64,000 nt of DNA from Candidatus Acidiferrales bacterium (GTDB lineage: Bacteria > Bacteroidota > Ignavibacteria > Kryptoniales > JAKASW01), in NCBI GenBank assembly GCA_035515795.1, contig DATJAY010000028.1:5296-69295 (forward strand), written 5' to 3'. The number at the start of each line of letters is the position of its first letter. The first letter of the stretch is position 1. Under the pieces are notes generated by a model, which made no database searches, was not told where the DNA came from, and saw only the letters and a program-made list of their open reading frames with translations. Position numbers and translations under genes: made by a program. Shown piece by piece: positions 14,990-50,772 of the stretch.

Positions 14990-15010
14990 CCTTCTCCTAA
15001 CAGGAGAGGG
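14990..15010. terminator. Stem-loop between convergent genes
   Basis: CCTTCTCCT-aac-AGGAGAGGG (9-bp stem with one G-U pair). It sits between the stop at 14983 (+) and the stop at 15019 (-). No T-run on either side. Confidence 0.4.
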
Positions 15011-15018
15011 AACAAACC

Positions 15019-16014
15019 TCAAAGATTAACCGCCACATTTACTCGCGTTTGATAACCGAGGCCCTGCGGTAACGGAGTTACATCAACGCTGGTTTGAACA
15101 AGCTTGTTGTGCGCATGCGCCCAGATCGCGGCTTCGATGGCCGAAAGGAAATGGTTCGCTATGACCACTCCGATTGCCGTTCCGGCGACTGCGTAAAGAT
15201 TATTTGCCAGGCCGCGCTGTCCCATGTAATAATTGTCTTGACCTACCTCGACGCCATATTTGAGCTGCTCGTACGTAACAACAGTGTCCGTGGCCGCGGC
15301 AGGATTCCAACCTTCCCTAAACTGGGGATACTTTCCGATAAGTTCGTAGTACTGCTGGTCGCCGTACGGTGGAAGTTTATGGGTGAAAAACTGACCTGGT
15401 GTCGTCTGACCAAGGATGGATTCAATCTCGTTAAGTTTTCCAAAATCCACTTTCTGCCATGGTGCAGGTCCGTCGTTTACGAACATTTCATTCAACAAGT
15501 TCTGAGTTGCCTGGTCGGGGTTCGGATCCCAGGAATTAAAATTAAGCTTTATCCACTGAGCATAACGGAGAACGCTGTAATTGGCGTCCGCATAATTCTG
15601 GAAAAAAGTCGTCTGGTTATTTCCTTTGTTTATCCAGATAATATTTACTGCAATGGCAGCAGCCTCGATAGCAAGAAAGCCGGCGGCTGTGATATAGTTT
15701 ACCGTCCCGCCATTGTAAACCTGGCCTGCTCCGGGAACCACCAGAGAAAACAAACCCGCTTTCAGCGAAGAACGAGTCTCCAGCAAGTACAGCGAATCCC
15801 TGTGTGACAGACTTTCCGGCTGCGCTGCAATGCCGATCAATAAATCATGCCCCGTCATGCTTTGTCTCTCGAACGTTGCACCCGGGAAAAGATCCTGCGA
15901 CAAGACTCCCGTAAGTCTATCTGCAGACCGGCCAGCTTCTAAAAAGGGAACGCGGGATTGGGCCTCCGCCGATGCACCAATCATCAATAATAATAAGACG
16001 ATTAGCTTTTTCAT
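15019..16014 (-). CDS. Secreted or membrane hypothetical protein; last gene of the porU-porV cluster
   Basis: Signal peptide MKKLIVLLLLMIGASAEAQ. An internal hydrophobic segment, PGAGQVYNGG...AAGFLAIEAAAIAVNIIWI, reminds me of the DUF5683 PGxGQxYN motif; this is not verified. Confidence 0.55.
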   Translation of the reverse strand: MKKLIVLLLLMIGASAEAQSRVPFLEAGRSADRLTGVLSQDLFPGATFERQSMTGHDLLIGIAAQPESLSHRDSLYLLETRSSLKAGLFSLVVPGAGQVYNGGTVNYITAAGFLAIEAAAIAVNIIWINKGNNQTTFFQNYADANYSVLRYAQWIKLNFNSWDPNPDQATQNLLNEMFVNDGPAPWQKVDFGKLNEIESILGQTTPGQFFTHKLPPYGDQQYYELIGKYPQFREGWNPAAATDTVVTYEQLKYGVEVGQDNYYMGQRGLANNLYAVAGTAIGVVIANHFLSAIEAAIWAHAHNKLVQTSVDVTPLPQGLGYQTRVNVAVNL

Positions 16015-16112
16015 CTTTGAATCCTTTCTTTCACTTCTATTATGGTCTGTAGCCGGTTTTCCCCTTGTGTTCCCTCAGCCTGCTATCTTGGTGATCTCTT
16101 GCTTCTGTTCCA

Positions 16113-19100
16113 TCATTGCATCTCTTTGAATCCCTGTCTCCCGAAATCTATTATGTCGAACGAAAACGTCAAGCCAAAATAAAATCTCCATTCCTTTCCG
16201 TATGTGGCGCTTCCATATGGCACTCCTGTCTGGTAGTCGCGGAGCTGGAGTGTGAATTTATCCAATCCGTAACAGGCGTCGAAAAAAATCGCCGTCGGAA
16301 AAGCGTAGAACGAGAACCCGCTCATCCTCAATTCCCCGCCTAAGTCTCTTCTGAATTTCGTGCCGGTCACGGTACCGCTCCAGCAATTTCCGACATCGCC
16401 GAAACCCGAAAGATAAACGTCGCTCAGATAGAATTGAAGTAGCTGCTTGTCGACATCTCTGAAAAGCGGATATCTGTATGTGAGGTTCAATGTGAGCAGC
16501 TTGTTCCCGCCAATTGCGTAAAACGGATAGCCTCTCATCCCGATCAGGCCGCCGGCGTAAAAATTGTAGAAGTCGTTTATTTGCGGTCCAAAGGTGTAAC
16601 CGAGATGCAGTTTCGCAGCTAACGCGTCATCGTCCCTTAATAGTGGTACAGCAAAATAATTCATCAGCTCGGCCTGGAAAAAATTAGAAGGCTTATATAT
16701 CGGGATGATAAGACTCGACGCCTCCAGACTATCACTTAGTTTGTTCAATGCTGCTGAGAATCTGAGTCTCGTTTTGACTCCGAGCGGATTGATCCAGGAA
16801 TTCCTCGCAGGAGAGATCCCATCGAAATCGAACTGCGCATAAAAAGTTCTCCCGATGAAATAGACATATCCTAAAGATGACCACAGATATTCTGTCACGG
16901 TATCCTTAAATGCAGATTGTTCCACGTCATATCTATCGAAAGTAAATCCCAACGTCAAATTTAGAAAAGGAGAAATGATTTGTCCGCTGAACGCCCCATC
17001 GACCTCAATCAGATCGTAGGTAATCGCAACATTTGGAATCGTATCACCGCCGAGGTTAAAGGTTGCGGATGTCTGCCTCGTAAGATTGTACGCAGTTAAA
17101 GTAAACTTCGGAAAAATTCCAAGCGACGAGAGCCCCGGGATCCTGTCGTTGTAATCGAGCTGAAAAAAAATATCGCGCTCGAAAAGTTTGTTCAGTGTGA
17201 TCCCGCCGAAAATGTCATATTTCCCGATTACATCCTCGGAAGTGAAATACAGGCCTCCTTTCAATTCATCCAGGAAGCTCACATGGGGATTATAGTTGTC
17301 GAATAGGAGCACAGGATAGAACGACAGGCTGGTCGTCCTGCTGCTATATGGCTTCGACACATAAGTGGCCATTTCTTCGGATGACTTCTCGTGAGGCGCA
17401 TCTTGGGTTTGCGGAGCGATGCCTTGCGTATCCGTTGATTCTGCAATTTGCGATGCGGGTTCTATTTCTGCCTTGTATGCCGGCGGATTGGAAATCGGCG
17501 AAGCGCTCTCGATATCTGCTATTTTGTATCCATTCCATTGATACGAGGAACAAACAAGATCACCGCTTTTTGAAAACGTCGGCATGAACGCGCCTCCGAG
17601 GACATTCGTCAACGCTACTGTTGCTCCGCTGTAGAGATTCTCCTCATAAATATTGAATATTCCCGAACGATCGGATGAATAGACCAAACTGCTATCGTTG
17701 TCGGCAAAGATCGCATCGCGGGAGTCTTCGCCTCCCGGAGTCACAAATTTAACGGAGCTGTCCGCAAAACTATAAATGCCGATCTGCCGCGATGAGTCGA
17801 CGGAATAATCGAACGCAATCTTCGAACCGTCATTCGACCAGCGGGTCGAGTAAATCTGCTCGCCGTTTCCATAGTCCGTTAATTTCTTAATGCCGGAAAT
17901 CTTGTTCTCTGCAAGATCGACGTCGGCGCAAAACAGATTCAAGGTCCCGTCACTGCCGGCAACAAACGCGACTCTCCTGCCGTCGTGTGAAAGCGAAGAA
18001 TACTCCGCCCGTGATCCGTCAGTCAACCTCTCTTCATCACCGGTGGTCAAATTGTACGAATACAAATCGTAAAGGTCGTCCCAGTGCGGGTTGTGCCGGT
18101 CCAGCTTTGAATAAACCAGATAATTCCCGTCCGGAGACCATGAAAGCTCGCTCGCCGTGTGATCGGTCACTTCTTTCTCCGAACTGTCAGCAAGATTGTA
18201 CACGTAAATCGAGGAGGTTCCAAAATAATCATTATCTTTATTGGAGCAATAAGCTATCCTCTTCCCGTCGGGCGAAAACACCGGGAAGAGATTCGCGAAT
18301 CCAACGTCACGGATAATTCTCCCTTGATGCAATGCCTCGTTTATTTTTTCCGTCCTCGTTTCGTAATTCTCTTCCAAAAATTTTTCCCACTCACCATAAA
18401 CTTGCGTGCCCGATTTGCCAAGCACCTTCTTGAAAGCCTGATCGATCGATACTGCATCGATGGAGCTCATTGCATCCGACAGTTCTCTCAACACGCCGGA
18501 CCCATACTTGCCCGCCAGATAATGAACAAACGCAAAACCCGCGTTGTATGTAGATTCATTGCCGAGGCTCGTCTTGCCGAACCCTCCCATTTCCTCCAGT
18601 GTAAGCATCTTATGATTTAAAACGTACATCCGCAAAATCATATCGCGGTGCGTGTCCCACGTGTCATGCTCAAAATTCAGATGTGGAACGTTGTACTGCG
18701 CGACCCCTTCTGCAAACCACGCCGGGACAACTATCCCGCTCAGCGGATAACTTACGACGACATTCGGATAACCGTAAAGAACATCCGGCCTTCTCTCCGC
18801 TTCGTATCCGAGCCACTGGAGATAAATTGCGGGGAGCTGCCTGCCAAATTTCATCGCGGTTTGCATCTGGACATCGTGGGTGAATTCATGCGTCACGACA
18901 TCCCGCAGCCAATTGTGAGTGCCGCGGAGCGCGAAATCGAGGTTGGACGCCCAGATGTTGATCTTGTTATCGAAGAAATAAGTTTCGCCGTTCGAGTAAT
19001 CGTCGTTGTCCCAGATGACAAAGGAAACTTTTTGTGTCGGCTCATGATGGTACAGAGAGGTTACAGCCGGGTACATTTGTTCTGCAATTTTTGCAACGAG

Positions 19101-19343
19101 CTGTGCGGTCCGCTCTTCGCCGTCGTGATAATCGATATAAAAATGTTTCGTCTCGATCGTGTGCCAGTTTAACTCGGGGTGAATGAACTCGTCCTGGGCA
19201 AAAGCTGCGTTGCAGGAGCACGAGGCAACGTATGCATAGAGAAATAGTGTAAATGAGAAACGATGGAAGAGTGGAGAAAACCCTCGGGACTTGTCACTCG
19301 GATGTTTCAACATTTTGATAATCTTGCGGGAAAGCAATTTCAC
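16113..19343 (-). CDS. HExxH zinc-metallopeptidase / PD40 (TolB-like) beta-propeller / C-terminal beta-barrel fusion protein
   Basis: HEFTH lies at nt 18876-18890. PD40-type repeats: FSPDGKRIAY, WSPDGNYLVY, LSHDGRRVAF, WSNDGSKIAF. The long C-terminal region has alternating beta-strand character (…WRFYFGLTFSF). Signal peptide FTLFLYAYVASCSCNAAFAQ. The GTG start overlaps the upstream stop (GTGA). Confidence 0.7.
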   Translation of the reverse strand: MKLLSRKIIKMLKHPSDKSRGFSPLFHRFSFTLFLYAYVASCSCNAAFAQDEFIHPELNWHTIETKHFYIDYHDGEERTAQLVAKIAEQMYPAVTSLYHHEPTQKVSFVIWDNDDYSNGETYFFDNKINIWASNLDFALRGTHNWLRDVVTHEFTHDVQMQTAMKFGRQLPAIYLQWLGYEAERRPDVLYGYPNVVVSYPLSGIVVPAWFAEGVAQYNVPHLNFEHDTWDTHRDMILRMYVLNHKMLTLEEMGGFGKTSLGNESTYNAGFAFVHYLAGKYGSGVLRELSDAMSSIDAVSIDQAFKKVLGKSGTQVYGEWEKFLEENYETRTEKINEALHQGRIIRDVGFANLFPVFSPDGKRIAYCSNKDNDYFGTSSIYVYNLADSSEKEVTDHTASELSWSPDGNYLVYSKLDRHNPHWDDLYDLYSYNLTTGDEERLTDGSRAEYSSLSHDGRRVAFVAGSDGTLNLFCADVDLAENKISGIKKLTDYGNGEQIYSTRWSNDGSKIAFDYSVDSSRQIGIYSFADSSVKFVTPGGEDSRDAIFADNDSSLVYSSDRSGIFNIYEENLYSGATVALTNVLGGAFMPTFSKSGDLVCSSYQWNGYKIADIESASPISNPPAYKAEIEPASQIAESTDTQGIAPQTQDAPHEKSSEEMATYVSKPYSSRTTSLSFYPVLLFDNYNPHVSFLDELKGGLYFTSEDVIGKYDIFGGITLNKLFERDIFFQLDYNDRIPGLSSLGIFPKFTLTAYNLTRQTSATFNLGGDTIPNVAITYDLIEVDGAFSGQIISPFLNLTLGFTFDRYDVEQSAFKDTVTEYLWSSLGYVYFIGRTFYAQFDFDGISPARNSWINPLGVKTRLRFSAALNKLSDSLEASSLIIPIYKPSNFFQAELMNYFAVPLLRDDDALAAKLHLGYTFGPQINDFYNFYAGGLIGMRGYPFYAIGGNKLLTLNLTYRYPLFRDVDKQLLQFYLSDVYLSGFGDVGNCWSGTVTGTKFRRDLGGELRMSGFSFYAFPTAIFFDACYGLDKFTLQLRDYQTGVPYGSATYGKEWRFYFGLTFSFDIIDFGRQGFKEMQ

Positions 19344-22300
19344 TTAACGACGGCGATCTTGATGATTTTTACTTCATGGACCTTTGAAGAAATCGCTTCG
19401 ACCCTCGCAAAGTAGACTCCGCTTTGCACTCCGGCAACATTCCAGTCAACCTCCCCGTAAGTCCCTCCTGTCCCGTTCGCAGTTGGGATATCAGCGACCT
19501 TGCTGCCGGCAAAGCTGTAAACGCTGATCGAAACCTGTGCATCATGGTTCAGATAAAAACGGATTTTTGTCGCCCCGTTTGTGACCGGATTGGGCCAGTT
19601 ATAAACTTTCGGCATCAGACTAAGCGTATCGGTTATAGATGGCGGGATCGTTCGCGGAGCAGGCGCCTCGGTAATCGAGTTCGCGTGATTATTATCGCGG
19701 AGCAAATTCGCCCACAAAATGGAATTCGCCAAGTAGTTCCCTTTGAATGTCCAGCTGTACAAATATCCATCGAGGCCGATTGCATCGAGGTACAAATTCC
19801 CGCTCTGTGAGTCGTAAGCGAGCGCCGGACTTCCCGCAAGTCCGTCTCCGATGTTCACAGGAAAACCGGTGACAAGCTGTCCGGTCACACCGTTGAATGC
19901 GTAGATCGTCCCACCCTTTGTTCCGAAAATCACGTCGGCGGTATCGCCGGTCAACGCTGCGACCACGATAGAACCCACAATTCTATTTGCGTCTGGCGGT
20001 AGGACTTCACTCCCAACAGTAGAGATCGGAAAATGATTTAGTACGGCGCCGGTATACGAGATCGTGTAAACTTTGGTTTGCGTTGCGAAAATTATGTCGC
20101 GATTCCCATCGCCATCAAGGTCGGCAACGACTGGGCCGGAGATTATAGTGTCACCGGGGAAAGAAGTAAAGATTTTCTGAGAATTCCCACTCAAAGAATC
20201 GATATAAACGGAATTCAATGTCAGCCAAACCAGATAGGAAGAATTTTTCTGGAATAAGTTCGCAAATGAGATTCCGATTGGAACTTGAGGTACAGCCCCA
20301 CCTATCGGGGACGCCGAAACATAAACAGAGCTCGATTGACTTGAAATATTGTCCAAATTCGCCGACACAATACGACCACCGAAGTTCAATACTACATTGC
20401 TTGTATCGATCGCTGCACACTGAGACAAACTGCTTACCGCTGAACTCACGTTAAGCGGCTCATCAACCGAATTCTTTACAGGAGGCGGATAAGCACGACT
20501 GCCAAGATATTTACCTTTTGAAGAAAACACGGTCACAGAATAGTCGTCCGGTTCCACCGAAATCACTTTTGCGCCCAATGCCAACAGGGGCAAGCCTGCT
20601 TCATACAAAGGTAAAGAGTCTTTTGTCGCAAAGATCATATCCGCCGTTCCATCATGGTCGTTGTCGTGATCTACCAATCCGTAAAACACTGAATCATCCA
20701 TGGCGTACAGCGTGTCATTCACGCTCGAACCCGAAATAATCGGCTGAAATTTCCCGCCCACTTTCGAGAAGAATCCGGTCGAATCAAATCCGGCCGAACT
20801 CCCGTCCATATTGAATGTATACAGAGAGTCTCCGTTATTTGCGATAACCTGCAGTTTCCCGTCCGGGCTGATATGTCCGAATGTCGGGGATGAATTCTCT
20901 GTTGCTCCGTGAATATTTTTTGGAAAACCCGACGTGGCTGTGAAATTCGAGGCGATGGAGTCTACCGTTACATAAAATGTCATCAAGCTATCATGGCTAC
21001 TGAAGTTTGTGACGTAGATATGTGAATTCGCTTCGTTGTAACCGTCGGAGTTCGGCAAAGAAAATGGGGTGAACCAATCTGCAAGCGGATCATCGGAACT
21101 GTAAGGATTGGCATGACGGGCGGGATTCCCATTGTACCAGAAATCGGCAAACGAACCATCATAGTAATTTCCGCCGAAGATCGTCTGGATGTATCTCCCG
21201 ATTTCATTTGCGCCATGCGCCTCCATGACAGCGACTCCGCGATGAGCGGGATTTGCATTTACTGTGTTCGTCGACAGATTCTGGTCGATCACAGTTTGAT
21301 CTATATGCCAAACTAAAATTCCGCCGAAGTATGTCGTGTCCTGCGGGAGCGCCCAATCGTATTCATCGGCATCTGTTACAACTCCGTTTATGTTCTTGAT
21401 TTGCACACCGTCAAAATATCCCGACGCGGTCGCAAAAGTTATTTTCATCGTACTGTAACTGCCGTCGTAATAGCTCGTGACGTTTTCCCCGTCATGGTTC
21501 GCATCGCCTTCACGATTCTCCAGCAGGAAATACTCAGTCGAGCTGATCGGAATCTTGAGCGCAGAATATTTTCCCGTCGCATTCGCGTAAAGCTGGTATT
21601 GCGTCGCCTTCGATGGAGAGACTTCGGTGGGAGTTATCCACCCCAGATATGCCTTCTCCCATACGGATGGCTCTGGAGGGAAGATTCCGCCGTAAGAAAA
21701 AAATCCCTGGCCGTCCATCAAACCGAACCTGCCGATGCCTGTTACTCCCGTCTGAGTGTCGAACAAATCCGGCAGGCCAAGAAAACTGCCGAAGCTTGCG
21801 GCAAGAAGCCCGTTGATTCCAAGCCTCAGGCTATCAATGGGGAAATCTTCCCATTCAGGCATGATGATGGAATTATTGACATGAAAACTGCCGCCGTCGA
21901 CAGACTGTCCTCCATATCCGGCACCGAACATTTGTGCGAGGCTCGTCAGGTCCAGGTAAATTGAAGGGATATCGTAAGGAAGCGGATCGTAGCCGATTGT
22001 CGCGGTGAAATCGATGTCATGGCCTGAGCCCGCATGAAATATCACGAAACATTGATACTGGCTGAACGGGAATGTTCCGTGGTACAGGGAATCCGCCGTG
22101 TGCCACGAATCTCGGAAGAGGAGTCCTAAGTTATTTCCGTTCCCCGATTTCGGAGGCGAATAGTATTTTATTTGATGAGGCAGCGTAACGACGGAATCGA
22201 GTACCGTGTAATTTATGCTGTCCTTCCCGCCTGAAACTTTGTTAAAATAATTTTTCAGAAAGAGGAGATGGTTCTCGAAATACGTTTTATCATGCGGCGG

Positions 22301-22522
22301 TGAATCGATTCCGCTTCCCTGGCTTATCACCAGCTCTCCGTTGCCGCTAGTCAATGTATCTCTATCCGTTTGGAACTGTACCATGATGGCAAGGACATTG
22401 TAGGTACCAACCGCCGGGATTTTTTGCGGCCGTGCACCATGTGCTGCGGCAAGAGGATGACTCAGCTCCTGCCCGTGCAAAAAATCAGCCCGAAAAAGCA
22501 GCGCCGCGGAAGCAATTACCAC
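19340..22522 (-). CDS. M6 (immune inhibitor A)-like protein with a degenerate zinc site, FG-GAP/VCBS-like repeats and a T9SS C-terminal sorting domain
   Basis: M6-like landmarks: NVLAIMVQFQTD, FVIFHAGSGHD, LGLPDLFDT and FGLMDGQG. The HExxH position reads AASFGS (nt 21785-21799). Repeats DLDGDGNRDIIFAT and DHDGTADMIFAT. C-terminus YNWPNPVTNGATKIRFYL...GVYFARVEA...KIAVVK. Confidence 0.7.
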   Translation of the reverse strand: MVIASAALLFRADFLHGQELSHPLAAAHGARPQKIPAVGTYNVLAIMVQFQTDRDTLTSGNGELVISQGSGIDSPPHDKTYFENHLLFLKNYFNKVSGGKDSINYTVLDSVVTLPHQIKYYSPPKSGNGNNLGLLFRDSWHTADSLYHGTFPFSQYQCFVIFHAGSGHDIDFTATIGYDPLPYDIPSIYLDLTSLAQMFGAGYGGQSVDGGSFHVNNSIIMPEWEDFPIDSLRLGINGLLAASFGSFLGLPDLFDTQTGVTGIGRFGLMDGQGFFSYGGIFPPEPSVWEKAYLGWITPTEVSPSKATQYQLYANATGKYSALKIPISSTEYFLLENREGDANHDGENVTSYYDGSYSTMKITFATASGYFDGVQIKNINGVVTDADEYDWALPQDTTYFGGILVWHIDQTVIDQNLSTNTVNANPAHRGVAVMEAHGANEIGRYIQTIFGGNYYDGSFADFWYNGNPARHANPYSSDDPLADWFTPFSLPNSDGYNEANSHIYVTNFSSHDSLMTFYVTVDSIASNFTATSGFPKNIHGATENSSPTFGHISPDGKLQVIANNGDSLYTFNMDGSSAGFDSTGFFSKVGGKFQPIISGSSVNDTLYAMDDSVFYGLVDHDNDHDGTADMIFATKDSLPLYEAGLPLLALGAKVISVEPDDYSVTVFSSKGKYLGSRAYPPPVKNSVDEPLNVSSAVSSLSQCAAIDTSNVVLNFGGRIVSANLDNISSQSSSVYVSASPIGGAVPQVPIGISFANLFQKNSSYLVWLTLNSVYIDSLSGNSQKIFTSFPGDTIISGPVVADLDGDGNRDIIFATQTKVYTISYTGAVLNHFPISTVGSEVLPPDANRIVGSIVVAALTGDTADVIFGTKGGTIYAFNGVTGQLVTGFPVNIGDGLAGSPALAYDSQSGNLYLDAIGLDGYLYSWTFKGNYLANSILWANLLRDNNHANSITEAPAPRTIPPSITDTLSLMPKVYNWPNPVTNGATKIRFYLNHDAQVSISVYSFAGSKVADIPTANGTGGTYGEVDWNVAGVQSGVYFARVEAISSKVHEVKIIKIAVVK

Positions 22523-22535
22523 GGCGGTCGAAAAT

Positions 22536-23699
22536 CTAAAAATCAGCTTGCCCGCCCCAATTCAGACCTAACGAAAAGCGAAGTTGATTTGATAAAGGAT
22601 TATTCGGATCAAACGTGGATATATAACTGAAATCAAAATTGACAATTCCGAAATCAGTGATGTCATATCGAATACCGGCGCCAAATGTCATGAAGTCTCG
22701 CCCGCCAAAATTCGGATTTTCCCTGTAGTAGCCCCATCGAAGCGCGATGAGTCTCGGCTGACCGTACCAGTATTCCGCACCTAGGCTCAAGATAATTTCT
22801 TTCAAACCGCTGCCGTCGTTCCATGTAGTGATTAACGACTTTGGCAAAGGGTCGACGGTCCGGGGAATTGTGGTATCTCCCTGCACGATTACCGTATCCC
22901 CGATTCTTACGCGTACCATCGTCCTGCTTAAATCGAGGATGAAGTACAAATTGTTATAGTCACTTTTCAGCAGGTGAAGTGCAAGACCTGCCCTGAGATT
23001 TGTTGGAAGAGGATCCGCTTGGGCTCGATCGATATAATATAGGTTCGGACCTAAATTTGTAAGTGTTATACCCAAGCCGAGCCTATTATCAAAGTTTCCC
23101 ACAAAAGGCAGATCGAGTTTCTGCGGCCTATACAATAATCCCAAATCGAAGCTGACATCGTTGGCAATACCCGATCCCTGCTCGTTCTCAGTGCCTACCG
23201 GTGATAGGTCGCTTCTTATGAAACGGAAGTTCACGCCGAGTCCAATGTCGTCGGAAATCTGGGTGCCGTAGCCAAGTGTAAGAGCGCCCTCGTAGGCATG
23301 CCATGTCCCGATCGGGGTGGGACCGCTTGAATTTGTCTGCGTGAACTCGCCCAGGTTAAAAAAAGTTATGCTTGCCGCGACACTGCCCGACCAGTCTTCT
23401 AAATAATGACTGTAACTGAAGAAATTATAATTCAAATCAGAACTGAACTCCGGCAGCCAAGGAGCTTCCGAAAGGCCTACGTTATCTCCTTTTAAAAAAC
23501 CGAGTCCGCCGACGTTCCAGAAAATGGCAGAACCGTCGTCCGCCAAGCCTGTTCCTGTTTCTCCCATGCCGCCGGCCCGGGCGTCGGGGGAAATCAGAAG
23601 AAATGGGACAGCGGTGGTCTGCTGATTTTGCGAAAACGCATCTGAGTTCAACATTAGTACTACCATCGCAGCAACTGCCGCCAAAATAGTTGCCTTCAT
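22536..23699 (-). CDS. porV: T9SS outer-membrane shuttle/channel protein PorV (LptO)
   Basis: Signal peptide followed by the hallmark AVPFLLISPDARAGGMGETGTGLADDGSAIFWNVGGLGF. Beta-barrel character throughout, and it lies immediately downstream of porU. Confidence 0.85.
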   Translation of the reverse strand: MKATILAAVAAMVVLMLNSDAFSQNQQTTAVPFLLISPDARAGGMGETGTGLADDGSAIFWNVGGLGFLKGDNVGLSEAPWLPEFSSDLNYNFFSYSHYLEDWSGSVAASITFFNLGEFTQTNSSGPTPIGTWHAYEGALTLGYGTQISDDIGLGVNFRFIRSDLSPVGTENEQGSGIANDVSFDLGLLYRPQKLDLPFVGNFDNRLGLGITLTNLGPNLYYIDRAQADPLPTNLRAGLALHLLKSDYNNLYFILDLSRTMVRVRIGDTVIVQGDTTIPRTVDPLPKSLITTWNDGSGLKEIILSLGAEYWYGQPRLIALRWGYYRENPNFGGRDFMTFGAGIRYDITDFGIVNFDFSYISTFDPNNPLSNQLRFSLGLNWGGQADF

Positions 23700-23866
23700 A
23701 ACACATCACTCCTCAATTAGGGGTTTATAATAAAACGTTTCTAAAACACTTTCCACATCCATTTCCGACTGCAATCTTCGGAAAGCCCTCCATATCATCA
23801 AAATCGAACGCACGGAATCTCGCTTCGCGGCGACTGAATCACACGAGATATATGTTACCGTTCGGC

Positions 23867-26800
23867 TCATCTTAGGACCGCCATTTTTCCTATCGCCTCG
23901 CTGGTTTGCGATCCATCGACGGTCGACACAATCACTTTATAGAGATAAACGCCGTTCGCGAGACGGTTGCCGTCATCATCGAGACCGTTCCAGTCTATCT
24001 TTACGAACGTGTCGGTCAGCCCATACGCTTGAATTGTTTTAATCAATCTTCCACTCAATGTGAAAACTTTTATCTTCACATTAACCGGTTCTCCCGGCCC
24101 GCCGACAGCCGTTCTCTGAAATGTAAATGCAGTAGCATCCCTGAAAGGGTCGGGATAGTTGTAAACATTCATTAACGACAATTGCTGCGATGACTCCAAA
24201 TCAAATGCCGCACTTGCCTCTGCTGAATTATTGAAGACATCGAATGCATCCACCTCAACCGAGTGTTTGCCGGTGGAAAGCGCCATGGTGACGGGGAAAT
24301 TCACTGTACCATCTTGATAGGAGTCGACCGCTCCTACATAATAAGGACCGAGATCAACGGACTGCTGTCCATCGAAGGTTGCCTGCAAATTATGTCCGAC
24401 TCCCGCGTCGGATAGATTAATTCCATTGTCAGAATGCAGATCGACAATCAAATTTGGTTTCTCTGAGACGACGTCGCCGTCTCTAAAATTCCGAGAGTCC
24501 AGATAAATTTTTACGGTTGGAGCCTTGTGGTCGTTCACCGCGTTCGTATCGGTCCCGCCCACGACGACATTTCTCGTGTACCCTATCCCATCCGAACCGT
24601 TCGCCTGAAAATACAGCTCTATTTTTCCTGTAATGTTGCTGTATGATATGTCTTTCGGTATCACGGCTTTTGCATCAAATGTTCCATCTTTGATCGAGAT
24701 TTCTCCTCGGAAGAGTATAGAGCCTTGAGTACGATAAGTATAACTCAATTGCGGGATGTGAATGTTTTTGTCCGAATCATATATCGTAAGAAGAGCTGTG
24801 CCGTTGAAGTCATTCCAAACGGTTTTATCCGGGTGGTAAACCGTTCCTTTTATGTCAAGCTTGTCCAGTGCTCTTATCTGCTGCGTCTGCACCGTCAGAG
24901 ATTTTCCGTTCAAACTGTCGACAGCCGCCTGGTATTTGGGCAAGGCCAATCGCACGGTAGGATCGCCGATATAATTATACTTTATGTCATTGGGATCAGA
25001 ATAATAATCCTGCTTAGTCGCGAAGAAAGCGTCCCCGATCCGCGCCGCGTTTCGCAGACTATCCCTGGTGAACAAATGCTCAAAAAGATCTGAGTTCAGA
25101 TCAGAATTTAGGTTCTCAAATGTAACCCTCGTCGAGCTCACTGCTCCTATTGCGCCGCCCTTTTGAGAATTAAGGAGAAGTTCAGCGCCGCTCTGCGTTG
25201 CGGGATCATCGTCTCTTCCAAAATCACATGTGGCGGTGACAAACAGTGCGAGGGTCGTCAGATTATTGAGTTGCGGAATTGTCACGTCGTTTTCAAAAAT
25301 ATGTGTGTAAGACCAAACGTCTGGAGCTCCATGACCCACAAAGTTTACAACAAGAGTCCCCTCATTGATCTGGTTCACGAGATCTGCCGCTGCATCGGGT
25401 TTGCGGATGCCCTGAGTTGAGACGATGGTTGGATATGAAATCAAATATATTTTCCGCCTGTCGAGATCCGGAGGCGTATATGTTAAATTATTTGCCAGAT
25501 CCTCCGAATCGATCATGAAATCGGTAATCACACTGTCCGCAGTATTGTTATCGTGATCATCGCCGACGAATGTTACAAGATTTCTCCAACTGCCGTAGTT
25601 TGGATTTTGTTCATATTGTTGAATTTTGCTTACAATTGCGTTGGCATCCTGTTCGCTTCTTGCAGGCAGTCTTCCCAAAGACATAGAGATCCTCGAAGAG
25701 GTCAGGGAACCTTTGAAGTCTACGAAATAGTCGTCGGTGGCATAGCTATCAACCTGATCCAACGAATTATCCGATTCATAGGCTGGAACATATTCCGGGA
25801 GGCTGGCCACTTTGTTCTTATAATCATAAGTTCCGGCCCCGAAGAGAATGACGTAAGAAGGAATCTGCTGGTCATTTGAATAGACAAAGTTCAGATAATC
25901 TCGAATCGCGGTTGGGTCAGGAATTCCGCAAGCGAATTCATTGTATATATCCGTAGTTTTGACAACAATCGTTTTGAGCCCATCAAAACTCTGTTTGAAA
26001 TTCGCAAGCTGGTTCGCTTGTGATAAAAAATCGGGCGGGGTAATGATTATCAGGTCCGTACCGGAAACCTGGCCGCGAAGATCGGAGTTCTGAATTTGTG
26101 AAATGCCTCCTGCGGTCAGAAAGCCGTTCTCGCCAACGGCATAAAATCGTTTCGATGCCCCGGCAGCTGTCTGGATGCCGAACGAAGCCGTCTCACCGCT
26201 GATTGAATCGGGCTGTACCATGCTAACATTGGCAAAATCTGTTACATCGAAGACTCTTACGTTATTGCTGGAAAATCCCTGGACGGAATAATATACTGCG
26301 GCATTCGTGTCGGGAGCGTAGAAATTCAGGGCATCATTGAGCGCCTGAAATCTCCTTTTGTAAAAAATCTCGAACCAATCGACGTATCCTTTAGCTAACT
26401 GAGAATCCGAGTCATAAACGATTTTCAAAGCGCTCATATCATTCAAAAGATTTCCGGTGCCCGTGTAATCCGGCGTAGACACGGCTATAGCATAAGGGCC
26501 TTGATCGCTGTATGGACCTGTAATATCAACAACGCCGCCGTTAATTGTCCCCAGCTGAGTTCCGGTAGAGTTTTCATAAATGGTGAACCAGTTTGCCTCG
26601 TCGCTTCTCGACGCAAAACTCAGCCTGTACGTAATGGGCTGCGTCGGGTCCAATCCGTACAGCTTGTTAAGATATTCGACTGTGTTGACGCCTGCATTAT
26701 CTTGTGTTGACTTTTCAAGGATCGCACCGTACCAATCTTTGCCGGAACCTTGAAGGTTATAAAGTTCACTGTCCGCAGCAACCATCGACGTGAAATCTTG

Positions 26801-27868
26801 AGGCATATAGTATGACGATGAATGATAGCTTGGAGCTATCTGCATCCGCTTTCCGGCCTGCCCGCCATAGGTCATGAAGTAGTAGTTTGTCTCAGTATAA
26901 TAGTTCAGGTAATGATGGTATGTGTGTGCTGATGGATCGTAAGTCCATTCTCGCGGCGATTTTCCGTAAAATAATATGTAATCGGCGGGTTCAAAATTGT
27001 CCGTGCCGTCTGAATTTCCATTGAAAACATATATTGCGTTCTCCATGATATCGGCAGGCCGGGGGGAGTCCGGAGGCTCCGGCAATGCATCTCCGCCGTC
27101 GTTAAAAATTCTGATCGTGTTCAAATGGATACTGTCAACGGGAATTTTTGCGTCTCTCAGATTCTGATAAGTGAGCCTGTAAATTCCGCTCTGGGATATC
27201 GAAAGGCTGTACCATGGCCCTTGGGCAAGAACACTTGAGGTTTGAATTTTCTGAAATTGATTCCGAACGCTTCCCTTCACGATCGCATTTCGCACCTGCG
27301 AATAATTAACCAAACTCTCTAACAGCAACCGATCCGTACCGACTGCCTGGGCTGTAATGCCTGAGCCTGTCGAAGCAACTTGAAACACGACCCTTTTCAA
27401 AACCTTGTAGGAACCTGTTAGACTGTCATATAAAAAAGGATAGACTCTTATCATCGATACAAGATGCCGCCGTTGTTCAGACGGTGCGTCGTAGGAGACA
27501 AACTCAGATGCCGCGAACAACGCCCGTGCCGACGGCAGGCCGGAACTGCGCACAGGCCGCATCATGGAACGCGTCGAGTAATCCGTCTGAACTATTCGGA
27601 CATTAATTTGTCGGGAAAAAACCCCGACCATGACCGGTATGAACGTCTTGAGGTAGCCTGAGGAACTCACTTCCGGCACCGCATGATCAAACAAAAGCTT
27701 CAAATATGAAACTCCGCCTTGTTTAATTGTATCGGCACCGAACAAATCGGGAGTCACTTCGATCAGTGTTGAGCCGGCTCCTTCCGACAAAACCCGCATG
27801 TCCTGAGCAAAAGATAGTTGCGCAATGGCAGATGCCAGAAGAGCGTACGCGATAATTTGTGTTTTCAT
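23867..27868 (-). CDS. porU: T9SS C-terminal signal peptidase/sortase PorU (C25 gingipain-like)
   Basis: C25-type segment LIIITPPDFLSQANQLANFKQS...IYNEFACGIPDPTAIRDYL...YVILFGAGTYDYKN. Catalytic His in VNFVGHGAPDVW and Cys in LFVTATCDFG. CTD-like end ...NGVYLYKVIV...KMAVLR. Confidence 0.85.
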   Translation of the reverse strand: MKTQIIAYALLASAIAQLSFAQDMRVLSEGAGSTLIEVTPDLFGADTIKQGGVSYLKLLFDHAVPEVSSSGYLKTFIPVMVGVFSRQINVRIVQTDYSTRSMMRPVRSSGLPSARALFAASEFVSYDAPSEQRRHLVSMIRVYPFLYDSLTGSYKVLKRVVFQVASTGSGITAQAVGTDRLLLESLVNYSQVRNAIVKGSVRNQFQKIQTSSVLAQGPWYSLSISQSGIYRLTYQNLRDAKIPVDSIHLNTIRIFNDGGDALPEPPDSPRPADIMENAIYVFNGNSDGTDNFEPADYILFYGKSPREWTYDPSAHTYHHYLNYYTETNYYFMTYGGQAGKRMQIAPSYHSSSYYMPQDFTSMVAADSELYNLQGSGKDWYGAILEKSTQDNAGVNTVEYLNKLYGLDPTQPITYRLSFASRSDEANWFTIYENSTGTQLGTINGGVVDITGPYSDQGPYAIAVSTPDYTGTGNLLNDMSALKIVYDSDSQLAKGYVDWFEIFYKRRFQALNDALNFYAPDTNAAVYYSVQGFSSNNVRVFDVTDFANVSMVQPDSISGETASFGIQTAAGASKRFYAVGENGFLTAGGISQIQNSDLRGQVSGTDLIIITPPDFLSQANQLANFKQSFDGLKTIVVKTTDIYNEFACGIPDPTAIRDYLNFVYSNDQQIPSYVILFGAGTYDYKNKVASLPEYVPAYESDNSLDQVDSYATDDYFVDFKGSLTSSRISMSLGRLPARSEQDANAIVSKIQQYEQNPNYGSWRNLVTFVGDDHDNNTADSVITDFMIDSEDLANNLTYTPPDLDRRKIYLISYPTIVSTQGIRKPDAAADLVNQINEGTLVVNFVGHGAPDVWSYTHIFENDVTIPQLNNLTTLALFVTATCDFGRDDDPATQSGAELLLNSQKGGAIGAVSSTRVTFENLNSDLNSDLFEHLFTRDSLRNAARIGDAFFATKQDYYSDPNDIKYNYIGDPTVRLALPKYQAAVDSLNGKSLTVQTQQIRALDKLDIKGTVYHPDKTVWNDFNGTALLTIYDSDKNIHIPQLSYTYRTQGSILFRGEISIKDGTFDAKAVIPKDISYSNITGKIELYFQANGSDGIGYTRNVVVGGTDTNAVNDHKAPTVKIYLDSRNFRDGDVVSEKPNLIVDLHSDNGINLSDAGVGHNLQATFDGQQSVDLGPYYVGAVDSYQDGTVNFPVTMALSTGKHSVEVDAFDVFNNSAEASAAFDLESSQQLSLMNVYNYPDPFRDATAFTFQRTAVGGPGEPVNVKIKVFTLSGRLIKTIQAYGLTDTFVKIDWNGLDDDGNRLANGVYLYKVIVSTVDGSQTSEAIGKMAVLR

Positions 27869-27916: not shown

Positions 27917-28071
27917 AAAAAGTTCATCAAAGGTCTATCACAGCACTTATTTTAAACCTTTAACGAACTTTCTATAAAATCTTTCCTTCTTGTATTTTTA
28001 AAATATAGCAGGAATATGAAACTCTGTCAAGGCGTAACGGATTTATCTCGACCCGGCACACAGCTCTTGAA

Positions 28072-41238: not shown

Positions 41239-42057
41239 ATGGCAAAGCGAAAGAAAGTATCCCGCGCGGGAAAATCGCGGAGCACACGAAAGACACAATC
41301 CGGCAAACTCGGCTACGGCTGGCTGCCCGATCTGCCGGATCACCGGGATCTCTTGTACGGACAAATTCGTCCGGCAATTGCCCCACTTCCATCTTCGATG
41401 GATCTTCGACCGACTTGTTCACCCGTTGAAAACCAAGGACAACTTGGAAGTTGTACGGCAAACGCACTGGTCGGCGCGCTTGAATTCTTGGAGAAGAAAG
41501 ACGGCATGAAACTCGTCGACCTGAGCAGACTCTTCATTTATTATGACGAGCGCGCCGTTGAACACACGGTAAAGTCAGATTCCGGCGCGCAAATCCGTGA
41601 TGGCATTAAAACGCTCGCCAAACAGGGAGTGTGTCCGGAAAAAGAATGGCCCTACAACGTCGCAAAATTTGCAGCCAAGCCATCAGCGAAGTGTTACAAA
41701 GATGCGCTCCAGCATGTTATCACTTCGTACCAGCGCATCCTGACGTTAGACGAAATGCGAAGCTGTCTTGCCGGTGGATTCCCATTTGTATTTGGGTTCA
41801 CGGTCTATGAAAGTTTCGAGTCGCAGCAAGTCGCGCAAACCGGGATCTTAAACATGCCACAGCCGGGCGAGAAGGTGATGGGCGGTCATGCGGTAGTTGC
41901 CGTTGGTTATGATGATTCACAGAAACGTTTCATCATACGCAATTCGTGGGGAGCAAGCTGGGGACAGCGCGGCTATTTTACAATGCCCTATGATTATCTC
42001 GCCGACAGAAATCTGTCGGATGACATCTGGACAATTCGAAGAGGCGAACACATGTAG
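41239..42057 (+). CDS. Papain-family (C1A) cysteine peptidase without signal peptide or CTD
   Basis: The catalytic set is intact: Gln and Cys in ENQGQLGSCTANAL, His in GGHAVVAVGYDD, Asn-Ser-Trp in IRNSWGASWGQRGYF. Strong SD (AGGAGGATCAT-ATG). The N-terminus MAKRKKVSRAGKSRSTRKTQSGK is highly basic and not hydrophobic. Confidence 0.9.
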   Translation: MAKRKKVSRAGKSRSTRKTQSGKLGYGWLPDLPDHRDLLYGQIRPAIAPLPSSMDLRPTCSPVENQGQLGSCTANALVGALEFLEKKDGMKLVDLSRLFIYYDERAVEHTVKSDSGAQIRDGIKTLAKQGVCPEKEWPYNVAKFAAKPSAKCYKDALQHVITSYQRILTLDEMRSCLAGGFPFVFGFTVYESFESQQVAQTGILNMPQPGEKVMGGHAVVAVGYDDSQKRFIIRNSWGASWGQRGYFTMPYDYLADRNLSDDIWTIRRGEHM

Positions 42058-47644: not shown

Positions 47645-47926
47645 GCATGAACAGTTCCGCTATGCAGGTGAATTAGTTTTCTCCCTACTTTCGCATTTTT
47701 CTATCTCCCACTACGTAAAGCGGTCGACTAACATCTCCCGCTAAAAACCAACAGGGCTGCCCTCTTAACAATTTCTTCCTGAAAAGGCATTGTCCCCTTA
47801 ACCATCGCTTAATACCACTTCGGTATTTTGATCCGAGATTCGTCTGACGAATGGGTTCAGAGGGATAGACGTCTCACAGTCAAAGCGATTTCAAAAACTT
47901 GTTTCATTTTCATGGAAGAAGGGTTC

Positions 47927-50722: not shown

Positions 50723-50772
50723 TTTCACTGGAATGAATAGTAAAATCAACAATCACAATCAAAGGAGAAACA

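Follow-up and report, generated by a model that had tools for sequence, protein, structure and literature searches.

Three genes that follow porU and porV (here P3, P4 and P5) are tightly and anciently linked to them, the same gene order recurring in more than 120 independent loci, which places the arrangement far beyond chance. The first of the three encodes a T9SS-dependent pseudoprotease, the second a propeller-containing peptidase built onto an Omp85-type barrel, and the third a small conserved protein. All three probably assist, in a way not described so far, the step at which T9SS cargo is trimmed and anchored.

The five-gene locus and its products

We analysed a 64-kb stretch of DNA (the window), in which five open reading frames run in the same direction on the minus strand, from 27868 to 15019, in the order porU, porV, P3, P4 and P5. 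The original prediction, made from the sequence, gave exact coordinates, strand, order and gaps for all five, and its domain calls for the cluster proteins were upheld by profile matches and an AF2 model. The features of the locus are:

28002-28030, minus strand: putative promoter, TTGACA-17-TATATT with a TG extension (best sigma-70-like match, by consensus only)
23867-27868, minus strand: porU, T9SS C-terminal signal peptidase/sortase, 1333 aa (NF033707, PF01364)
22536-23699, minus strand: porV, PorV/PorQ-family outer-membrane barrel, 387 aa (NF033709, PF19572)
19340-22522, minus strand: P3, T9SS-dependent M6-like inactivated metalloprotease, 1060 aa (NF052323)
21761-21802, minus strand: degenerate M6 zinc motif of P3, aa 241-254, AASFGSFLGLPDLF in place of HExxHxxGxxD (alignment)
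19358-19597, minus strand: type-A T9SS C-terminal sorting domain (CTD) of P3, aa 976-1055 (PF18962, TIGR04183)
16113-19343, minus strand: P4, WD40-Omp85-type protein, 1076 aa (Pfam, AF2, fold and motif evidence)
18876-18890, minus strand: HEFTH zinc-binding/catalytic motif of P4, aa 152-156 (alignment)
18708-18710, minus strand: third zinc ligand of P4, E212 in WFAEG (alignment)
16527-16541, minus strand: Omp85 loop-6-type motif GMRGY of P4, aa 935-939, counterpart of (V/I)RG(Y/F)
16389-16403, minus strand: Omp85 strand-13-type motif FGDVG of P4, aa 981-985, counterpart of (F/G)xDxG
15019-16014, minus strand: P5, conserved 331-aa protein with a signal peptide (65 aligned orthologues)
14990-15010, no strand assigned: short hairpin CCTTCTCC-TAACA-GGAGAGGG, within the 35 nt that separate P5 from a convergent metallophosphoesterase gene

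A gap of 167 nt separates porU from porV and one of 13 nt separates porV from P3; P3 and P4 overlap by 4 nt (GTGA, as read directly), and 98 nt lie between P4 and P5. The candidate promoter lies ~134 nt upstream of the porU ATG, and no convincing terminator-like site was found in any intergenic gap of the cluster. Taken with the common direction of the genes, the short gaps and the synteny described below, this makes one conserved envelope operon the best reading of the locus. A hairpin facing the convergent gene had been predicted at its end and is indeed present; its folding energy, however, cannot be distinguished from that of shuffled sequence (z = 0.22), which makes it weak as a terminator, and we dropped it as evidence for one. 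All five products carry signal peptides, each ending just before a Gln, the pattern described as the Q-rule (PMC5837995). The remainder of the window holds housekeeping genes and one unrelated CTD cargo, encoded 30 kb from the cluster, and neither further T9SS machinery nor PorZ or PorQ was found within these 64 kb.

PorU matches NF033707 with 955 bits (cutoff 420) over model positions 1-1094 of 1095, and its Peptidase_C25 domain (PF01364) is matched with E = 7.5e-90 over positions 2-374 of 374; relative to the model start, it has an N-terminal extension of ~210 aa. PorV scores 273 bits against the family model NF033709 (cutoff 90) and 103 bits against PF19572 (cutoff 27); it falls just below the cutoff of the equivalog NF033710 (241 bits, cutoff 250) and reaches only 66 bits with the PorQ model. 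Judged by these matches, the two proteins are true members of the T9SS sortase family and of the PorV family, respectively.

In the predicted layout of P3 (AF2 model, pLDDT 79), the signal peptide is followed by a dead M6-like domain, then by a beta-propeller region of the FG-GAP type (~aa 500-960), and the C-terminal part is a type-A CTD. Its full-length match to NF052323 (741 bits, cutoff 600), the loss of HExxH and the presence of the CTD (PF18962, Por_Secre_tail, 32.2 bits, cutoff 27; TIGR04183, 29.8 bits, cutoff 23) identify it, at the level of sequence, as a member of that family. HExxH has become A(S/N)xxS in 36 of 36 aligned orthologues, and GLPDLF is invariant in the same 36. With the two His and the catalytic Glu of HExxH substituted throughout these orthologues, none of its three catalytic or zinc-binding residues is left, and P3 is therefore a pseudoenzyme.

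P4 begins with a signal peptide, followed by a gluzincin domain (aa 60-335), a TolB/tricorn-like propeller (340-611), a disordered linker (612-660) and an Omp85-type barrel (663-1060). An alternative start of its gene is an ATG 30 nt further in. Pfam matches are PD40 and Peptidase_MA_2, the latter present in 37 of 37 family members. H152, E153, H156 and E212 are invariant in all 37 sequences, and the same H-E-H-E set is retained in distant relatives of 22-25% identity; the N-terminal domain is thus a predicted gluzincin (MA(E)) metallopeptidase with an intact active site. The propeller is akin to those of TolB, tricorn and the S9 peptidases, and TolB is the best PDB match to P4 both by sequence and by fold (Foldseek).

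In the AF2 model, ~16-18 long strands make up the C-terminal barrel, and strand 11 is followed by a loop that includes a helix. Both Omp85 lid-lock motifs, as defined in PMC4490367, are found in the barrel, in the right order and ~45 residues apart: GM(R/K)GY and (F/Y)xDxG are each present in 37 of 37 aligned sequences. Two orthologues (P0036, 31.7 bits; P0074, 27.7 bits) have barrels that exceed the gathering cutoff of PF01103 (Omp85); the window P4 itself is below that cutoff, and its barrel segment alone matched no Pfam family. No POTRA domain was matched in the 37 members, a known exception that defines the non-POTRA Omp85 subfamilies, including WD40-Omp85 (PMC4104836). We assign the barrel, on motif and profile evidence, to the Omp85 superfamily, and P4 as a whole to the WD40-Omp85 ('WD40-like') subfamily. 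We also considered whether P4 might export its own N-terminal domains in the manner of a type V autotransporter. The ~50-residue disordered linker would be compatible with this, but PlpD, the closest precedent as an Omp85 protein with an enzymatic N-terminal domain, keeps that domain in the periplasm (PMC11116518), and for this reason we set the autotransporter reading aside as possible but not preferred.

P5 starts with a signal peptide. A PGAGQ/ExY motif leads into a hydrophobic helix (aa 105-129), and beyond it come a soluble core, which is conserved, and another hydrophobic segment (aa 273-299). Its similarity to DUF5683 is confined to aa 82-119 and remains below the cutoff for membership (22.5 bits, cutoff 26.7). 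The signal peptide agrees with the earlier description of P5 as secreted; the two hydrophobic, helix-like segments suggest that it may be membrane-associated instead.

Conservation of the gene order

We counted synteny only over loci with enough flanking DNA for the gene concerned. P3 lies directly upstream of P4 in 93 of 93 loci, PorV is upstream of P4 in 85 of 85 and PorU in 73 of 76, and P5 is downstream in 99 of 102. The two giant genes are thus syntenic with porUV in related genomes, as the original prediction required. The flanking housekeeping genes are conserved in the six closest loci only. At two loci porU has been relocated, and porV-P3-P4-P5 are still together. Synteny of this kind speaks of linkage, not of mechanism.

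A related block exists in a second phylum. In Chitinispirillia (Fibrobacterota), genes for a PorV-family barrel, an M6i-like protein and a P4-like protein stand together, between unrelated housekeeping genes, at 15 of the 19 loci with room for them. The barrel contains an inserted PorZ-type Reg_prop propeller. PorU and P5 are absent from this block, and its conserved upstream 209-aa gene has no similarity to P5. The P3 relatives score only ~335 bits on NF052323 and lack a recognisable type-A CTD. Among the genomes with the block are those of Ignavibacterium album, Melioribacter roseus and Chitinispirillum alkaliphilum.

Neither PorV nor M6i is found near P4 relatives of ~30-34% identity or near a P4 paralogue in Chitinispirillia, so the P4 family is not intrinsically tied to T9SS. 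On one variant contig, the position of P4 is taken by a protein with a peptidase domain, propellers and a caspase-like C14 domain, and a second C14 gene lies alongside, which points to proteolysis as the conserved theme of this position.

Possible roles of P3, P4 and P5

The reading that we favour, while giving it somewhat less than an even chance, is that the three proteins are a conserved accessory module that serves the PorU/PorV sorting station and has a propeller-gated, Omp85-anchored peptidase at its centre. The operon would join PorU, the CTD peptidase/sortase, and PorV, a shuttle barrel that binds CTDs, with three accessory proteins specific to the lineage. As a T9SS substrate, P3 would most likely reside at the cell surface, docked through its CTD to the PorV-family barrel, and would serve as a binding or adaptor subunit. 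By analogy with characterised Omp85 proteins, the gluzincin of P4, gated by its propeller, would most likely be periplasmic; P5 would be a small partner. In tricorn, POP, DPP-IV and other peptidases gated by a propeller, entry is limited to unfolded peptides, and the position of the propeller beside the peptidase in P4 suggests that it, too, filters unfolded peptides by size. We therefore infer that P4 may be an oligopeptidase that clears or trims peptides of the sorting station (released CTDs, stalled cargo), rather than a PorQ-like anchor. Several observations count against this proposal. Members of the P4 family also occur apart from PorV and M6i. PorU cleaves CTDs at the cell surface, so that PorU and a periplasmic P4 would be on opposite sides of the membrane, and P4 keeps the FxDxG, 'insertase-type', form of the lid lock, which a mere anchor does not need.

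The original prediction suggested that P3 could be a lineage-specific counterpart of PorZ and P4 one of PorQ, so that the operon would encode a complete attachment complex, and named dedicated cargo as the alternative. PorZ, a propeller protein, keeps its CTD and supplies PorU with the anchor glycolipid, A-LPS; PorQ is the barrel that holds PorZ. P3 does share the general plan of PorZ, with a type-A CTD after a beta-propeller, and its gene comes right after porU-porV in strict synteny, in a window that has no other candidate for either protein. However, the PorZ model of NCBIfam (NF052228) did not match P3 with the threshold relaxed to E<=10, and no PorZ chain was found at E<=1 when its family profile was compared with PDB sequences. 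In Foldseek searches, run with full-length models, propeller matches dominated, and the searches carry no information specific to PorZ or PorQ; the matches of P3 were generic propellers, with PorZ not among the best 50. BT4663 (4a2m), which PorZ most resembles (PMC5121618), is among them and would favour the equation, but this match has a TM of 0.13-0.17 and lies amid generic propellers. Nor does P3 have the PorZ plan of two tandem seven-bladed propellers of the Reg_prop/BT4663 type, as its N-terminal half is the dead M6 domain and its propeller region is of the FG-GAP type. P4 matched neither the PorQ model NF033711 nor the family model NF033709; its barrel carries lid-lock motifs, which makes it Omp85-type rather than PorV/PorQ-type, and hhalign gave a probability of 0.6% between its profile and a 67-sequence PorV profile. 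An apparently active peptidase would also be needless in an anchor. In the Chitinispirillia block, the M6i-like and the P4-like gene stand beside a barrel of the PorV/PorQ family that already has a PorZ-type propeller, which further argues against reading the two genes as mere substitutes for PorZ and PorQ. We consider this equation improbable, and, judged by these comparisons, P3 and P4 are unrelated to both PorZ and PorQ.

A better candidate among the alternatives, though still an unlikely one, is that P3 is a conserved T9SS cargo with its own machine: P3, P4 and P5 would form a proteolytic or peptide-handling complex of the outer membrane, for nutrition or envelope maintenance, unrelated to secretion, and would lie beside porUV only because P3 needs both proteins for surface display. 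The standard cargo CTD of P3 is what would be expected, as are the P4 relatives that have no T9SS gene nearby, the two loci from which porU has moved and the lack of PorU in Chitinispirillia. Ordinary cargo genes, in contrast, are scattered, like that of the CTD protein 30 kb away in the window. A PorV-family barrel, in one case a specialised PorV/Q variant, is moreover kept beside M6i and P4 in two phyla, which suggests a dedicated physical partnership rather than use of a shared, general shuttle. Less probable than either of these two alternatives is that P4 acts as an Omp85 machine, either a BamA/TamA-like insertase or a TpsB-like translocase, whose task would be to assemble or export a neighbour (PorV, PorU, P3 or P5), with the propeller as a BamB-like scaffold. 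The conservation of both lid-lock motifs, with FxDxG in the form typical of BamA/TamA insertases, is consistent with such a function, and a fusion of BamA with BamB is the comparison that Heinz and Lithgow drew for the subfamily (PMC4104836). P5 is encoded directly downstream, like a two-partner substrate, but it is nothing like TpsA and is missing from Chitinispirillia. To our knowledge, POTRA domains bind the substrate in all known Omp85 machines, and P4 has none; this reading would also leave the invariant peptidase active site unexplained.

The accessory module of the sorting station can be given a bolder, rather doubtful extension: the PorV-family barrel, together with the M6-like pseudoprotease and the propeller-gated peptidase on its Omp85 anchor, may represent an ancient three-part station for T9SS sorting or processing that predates the split of Bacteroidota and Fibrobacterota and was later replaced by PorZ and PorQ in the well-studied Bacteroidia. 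If so, an Omp85-family protein would be a genuine T9SS component, and the orphan WD40-Omp85 subfamily would gain its first function. Nearly all that has been learned of T9SS biology, cargo processing and anchoring included, comes from Porphyromonas and Flavobacterium rather than from other FCB lineages (Ignavibacteria, Kryptonia, Fibrobacterota). No kind of comparative evidence points more strongly to missing components than a block that is invariably found with porV and usually with porU, across so many loci in two phyla.

Relation to known systems

We found no description of the operon in the literature on PorU/PorV, M6-like proteins, Omp85, Ignavibacteria, Kryptonia or Chitinispirillum, in line with the original view that the arrangement is uncharacterised. 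Its parts are less novel than that view implied, as P3 belongs to a curated NCBIfam equivalog and the architecture of P4 has been known since 2014 (PMC4104836). At the family level, P3 does not differ from NF052323. Its N-terminal domain matches the model of the M6 peptidases (immune inhibitor A), including the GLPDLxD segment, but has none of the three HExxH catalytic and zinc-binding residues of these enzymes.

In the attachment complex of Porphyromonas gingivalis, PorU-PorV-PorZ-PorQ, the first two components correspond to true family members that are adjacent in this window, and here, too, genes for a propeller protein with a CTD (P3) and for a barrel protein of the outer membrane (P4) lie alongside. 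P3, like PorU and PorZ, is a predicted T9SS substrate. P3, with its dead M6 domain and FG-GAP-type propeller, is not a PorZ homologue, the barrel of P4 is of the Omp85 type and joined to a predicted live peptidase, and P5 has no counterpart.

The WD40-Omp85 subfamily was described by Heinz and Lithgow in 2014, with members in the FCB group (PMC4104836). As in P4, these proteins combine an aminopeptidase-like domain, a TolB-like propeller and a POTRA-less Omp85 barrel, and the best templates in the supplement of that study were TolB, M1-aminopeptidase and BamA/TamA. Apart from the suggested BamA-BamB-like fusion, the study gave neither genomic context nor function; the linkage to porV, porU and an M6-like pseudoprotease, which is strict here, was not reported there and offers a first functional context for the subfamily.

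Tricorn, prolyl oligopeptidase and other S9 enzymes, and DPP-IV have a PD40/tricorn-type propeller beside a peptidase domain, as P4 does. Those enzymes are soluble and mostly serine peptidases, whereas P4 is a predicted gluzincin welded to an outer-membrane barrel. In PlpD, likewise, an Omp85 barrel is the membrane scaffold for an N-terminal enzyme domain; PlpD, however, keeps its POTRA, carries a patatin-like lipase domain and has no link to T9SS, whereas P4 carries a peptidase and a propeller. With P4, PlpD would no longer be the only case in which an Omp85 barrel has been turned into an enzyme scaffold.

Conservation of the porU–porV cluster

The five genes of the original prediction were recovered exactly in our ORF listing, with the same order and coordinates:

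Genes of the porU–porV cluster
27868-23867, minus strand: porU, encoding PorU (1333 aa)
23699-22536, minus strand: porV, encoding PorV (387 aa)
22522-19340, minus strand: P3, M6-like/propeller/type-A-CTD protein (1060 aa)
19343-16113, minus strand: P4, HExxH peptidase/propeller/beta-barrel protein (1076 aa)
16014-15019, minus strand: P5, signal-peptide protein (331 aa)

The spacing was also as predicted, with gaps of 167 and 13 nt, a 4-nt GTGA overlap (read directly) and a gap of 98 nt. The strongest promoter-like sequence in the region, with 11/12 positions matching and a TG extension, is found 134 nt upstream of porU, and no terminator-like sites were found within the internal gaps. The hairpin proposed 3′ of P5 is present, but its folding energy is ordinary (z = 0.22). 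Housekeeping genes flank the cluster on one side (MgtA, IspE, a convergent metallophosphoesterase) and on the other (a dienelactone-hydrolase-like protein, thioredoxin, DnaE, ProS), and the 64-kb window contains no further T9SS machinery genes outside the five.

The window has one CTD cargo gene besides the cluster (50773-52272, plus strand), encoding a 499-aa protein with a type-A T9SS CTD and directly following a gene for a TonB-dependent-receptor-like protein with a CarboxypepD_reg domain (47828-50722, plus strand); this pair (47828-52272) is a cargo locus separate from the porUV cluster. Genes for a papain-family (C1) cysteine protease (41239-42057) and a multihaem cytochrome with Cytochrome_cB and MtrC-like domains (57940-59508) are unrelated to it.

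We scanned the P4 family alignment against one genome per species and obtained at least 595 relatives, the best 80 loci of which belong to Ignavibacteria, Kryptonia, UBA10030 and related ‘Bacteroidota’ MAGs; another 45 loci of the same type came from a metagenome scan. Gene order and strand, followed by tblastn with the window proteins as queries, were constant throughout the related loci. When genome and metagenome loci with enough flanking DNA were counted together, P3 was found directly upstream of P4 in 93/93, PorV upstream in 85/85, PorU upstream in 73/76 and P5 downstream in 99/102, the order being retained while protein identities drop to ~33–45%. The neighbouring housekeeping genes are common to the six closest loci only, and the five genes are, therefore, a conserved unit. 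The expected linkage of both giant genes to porUV was thus decisively borne out. The comparison covered 64 kb of this genome and flanks of 10 kb in the others.

In two of the three loci lacking porU, a ~420-aa ORF overlapping the porV start stands in its place (L033, 3823-5085; L070, 4400-5665); the former has weak MOP-flippase/TuaB-like matches (23–26 bits), and no family match was found for the latter. A variant operon, on the contig of the P4-family member P0082 (ENA ERZ1426824), consists of PorU-PorV-P3, a 218-aa gene, a 1348-aa protein and a second C14 protein. The 1348-aa protein combines Peptidase_MA, tricorn-type propellers and a Peptidase_C14 (caspase-like) domain, and aligns with only 55% of P4.

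A protein identical to P4 is deposited under ‘Candidatus Acidoferrales bacterium’ (locus tag VLX91_11960). As the close relatives of P4 and of the neighbouring genes all come from Kryptoniota, Ignavibacteria or Bacteroidota MAGs, the Acidoferrales label of the source bin is probably wrong.

Domain organization of the five products

All five products carry a signal peptide with predicted cleavage just before Gln (SFA↓QD, AFS↓QN, LHG↓QE, AFA↓QD and AEA↓QS). These predicted sites fit the Q-rule, that is, Gln after the cleavage site in Bacteroidetes signal peptidase I substrates, a rule described as not general across the whole FCB group (PMC5837995).

PorU scored 955 bits on the equivalog NF033707 (cutoff 420) and its C25 domain is complete. 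Around 210 additional N-terminal residues precede the NF033707 match (which begins at aa 213), and this extension is kept in many relatives, whose tblastn alignments begin at aa 23. PorV passed the PorV/PorQ family model (273 bits versus 90), just missed the equivalog model (241 versus 250) and reached only 66 bits on the PorQ model. For P5, the sole family match was to DUF5683, below threshold. Conserved among the 65 orthologues aligned are the signal peptide, a hydrophobic helix preceded by a PGAG(Q/E)xY motif, another hydrophobic segment and a soluble core that is itself well conserved.

P3 matched NF052323, ‘T9SS-dependent M6-like inactivated metalloprotease’ (M6i), with 741 bits (cutoff 600), and its type-A CTD is above threshold. 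Across 36 aligned orthologues (identity down to 36%), the M6 motif HExxHxxGxxD has become A(S/N)xxSxLGLPD, with both His and the Glu lost in 36/36 and GLPDLF invariant. With the furthest-upstream canonical start (GTG, 22522), the signal peptide is short and carries little charge. The sequence upstream of this start and in frame with it, IGAGKLIFRFSTAV (window 22520-22560, minus strand), lacks ATG, GTG and TTG; with a CTG or ATT start it would provide a better signal peptide, overlapping the porV end.

P3 had been proposed as a PorZ counterpart. However, the PorZ model gave no match to it with E-values up to 10 allowed, its family profile had no PorZ match among PDB sequences, and fold comparison returned generic propellers (among them BamB, BBSome subunits and BT4663 at TM 0.13–0.17). 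PorZ is built of two Reg_prop/BT4663-like seven-bladed propellers and a CTD (PMC5121618), whereas P3 instead combines an inactive protease domain with a propeller of the FG-GAP type.

In P4, an invariant HE(F/Y)xH and an invariant Glu within WFAEG make up a gluzincin sequence signature, and Peptidase_MA_2 was detected in 37/37 family members; the domain looks like that of a working peptidase. The top PDB matches of the propeller, by sequence and by fold, are TolB, S9 peptidases and tricorn. A disordered linker then leads to a C-terminal barrel of ~16–18 long strands. Two orthologue barrels (47–48% identical to P4) scored above the gathering threshold of Pfam Omp85, with 31.7 and 27.7 bits, and GM(R/K)GY, followed ~45 residues on by (F/Y)xDxG, is present in 37/37 aligned family sequences. 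These are the two ‘lid-lock’ signatures of Omp85, where loop 6 carries (V/I)RG(Y/F) and strand 13 carries (F/G)xDxG (PMC4490367). Profile–profile comparison with a 67-sequence PorV profile gave 0.6% probability. Judged by its sequence, the barrel is of the Omp85 and not the PorQ type, and this, together with the apparent peptidase, speaks against P4 as the suggested PorQ counterpart.

Distant relatives of P4

By searching 1.84 billion cluster representatives with a profile, we found distant full-length P4 relatives, which keep HExxH and WFxEG at 22–25% identity across groups. A metagenome scan with these relatives, and names from a homology search, led to a Fibrobacterota clade (Chitinispirillum alkaliphilum, Chitinispirillales and Chitinivibrionales), where 15/19 loci with room contain a conserved block flanked by unrelated housekeeping genes:

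Genes of the Chitinispirillia block
Gene 1: 209-aa protein
Gene 2: 794-908-aa PorV/PorQ-family protein (L161, 3802-6186; L090, 3509-6235; L162, 3375-5801)
Gene 3: M6i-like protein, 1203-1322 aa (NF052323 ~335 bits, no recognisable type-A CTD)
Gene 4: P4-like protein

Neither PorU nor P5 was found within 10 kb of the block. The PorV-family protein has its first barrel strand(s) at residues ~27–96 and the remaining barrel from ~500; the insert between them contains Reg_prop repeats (PF07494, 49–55 bits, cutoff 20.4), whose matches to the NCBIfam PorZ model are significant, albeit far below threshold (35 and 30 bits). The protein looks like a single-chain barrel plus PorZ-type propeller.

No PorV or M6i gene was found near other P4 relatives (~30–34% identity) or a Chitinispirillia paralogue, and the flanks examined of seven P4-family genes (L089, L097, L100, L109, L126, L148 and L160; 27–44% identity to reference P4 proteins) contained no PorV, M6i or P5. 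The peptidase–propeller–Omp85 architecture thus also occurs outside the T9SS context, and the family is broader than its T9SS-linked branches.

Possible role of P3–P5

In Porphyromonas gingivalis, PorV captures CTD-bearing proteins leaving the translocon, and PorU removes the CTD. We tentatively favour P3–P5 as an accessory module of this PorU/PorV sorting station, quite possibly with a peptide-processing role. P3 would itself be exported through the PorV/PorU route; being a propeller-bearing pseudoenzyme, it would most plausibly serve as an adaptor or binding subunit at the cell surface, held through its CTD on a PorV-family barrel like PorU and PorZ. P4 would be anchored in the outer membrane via its Omp85 barrel. 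To our knowledge, N-terminal domains are periplasmic in characterised Omp85 proteins. In PlpD, the enzymatic N-terminal domain is periplasmic (PMC11116518). Given this shared topology, the gluzincin and propeller of P4 are probably on the periplasmic side. In tricorn, POP and DPP-IV, propellers of this kind control entry to the active site, and P4 may, by analogy, act on peptides that are unfolded, for example stalled cargo or signal domains after their release. The P0082 variant, which keeps peptidase and propellers beside its C14 domain, points the same way. What counts against such a role is that PorU cleaves on the external side of the membrane.

The proposal also has weak points, as it offers no role for P5 and leaves the conserved insertase-type lid lock without explanation. 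An Omp85 insertase or translocase role of P4 is suggested by the lid lock, and we consider it very improbable beside the peptidase-like domain. Conserved cargo accompanied by an independent outer-membrane protease complex is a rather unlikely alternative, consistent with the type-A CTD of P3 and with P4 relatives outside the T9SS context, and set against a PorV-family barrel being kept beside the M6i and P4 genes in two phyla. That P3 and P4 are analogues of PorZ and PorQ, as their position beside porUV might suggest, appears improbable: in Chitinispirillia a PorZ-type propeller-barrel lies beside the M6i-like and P4-like proteins, which argues that the latter two do something other than replacing PorZ and PorQ.

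The accessory-module reading concerns an arrangement originally thought uncharacterised. We found no description of the five-gene operon, or of a link between the Omp85 family and T9SS, in the open-access literature; the components, by contrast, are already catalogued one by one (PorU, PorV, NF052323 and the WD40-Omp85 families). Indeed, the whole architecture of P4 is that of an Omp85 cluster which Heinz and Lithgow (2014) called ‘WD40-like’ and to which they assigned no function; for its members from Caldithrix, Rhodothermus, Cloacimonas and others, the best templates are TolB, M1-type aminopeptidase and BamA/TamA (supplementary table, PMC4104836). On the reading favoured here, the porUV operon would be a T9SS sorting module whose accessory proteins are of another kind.
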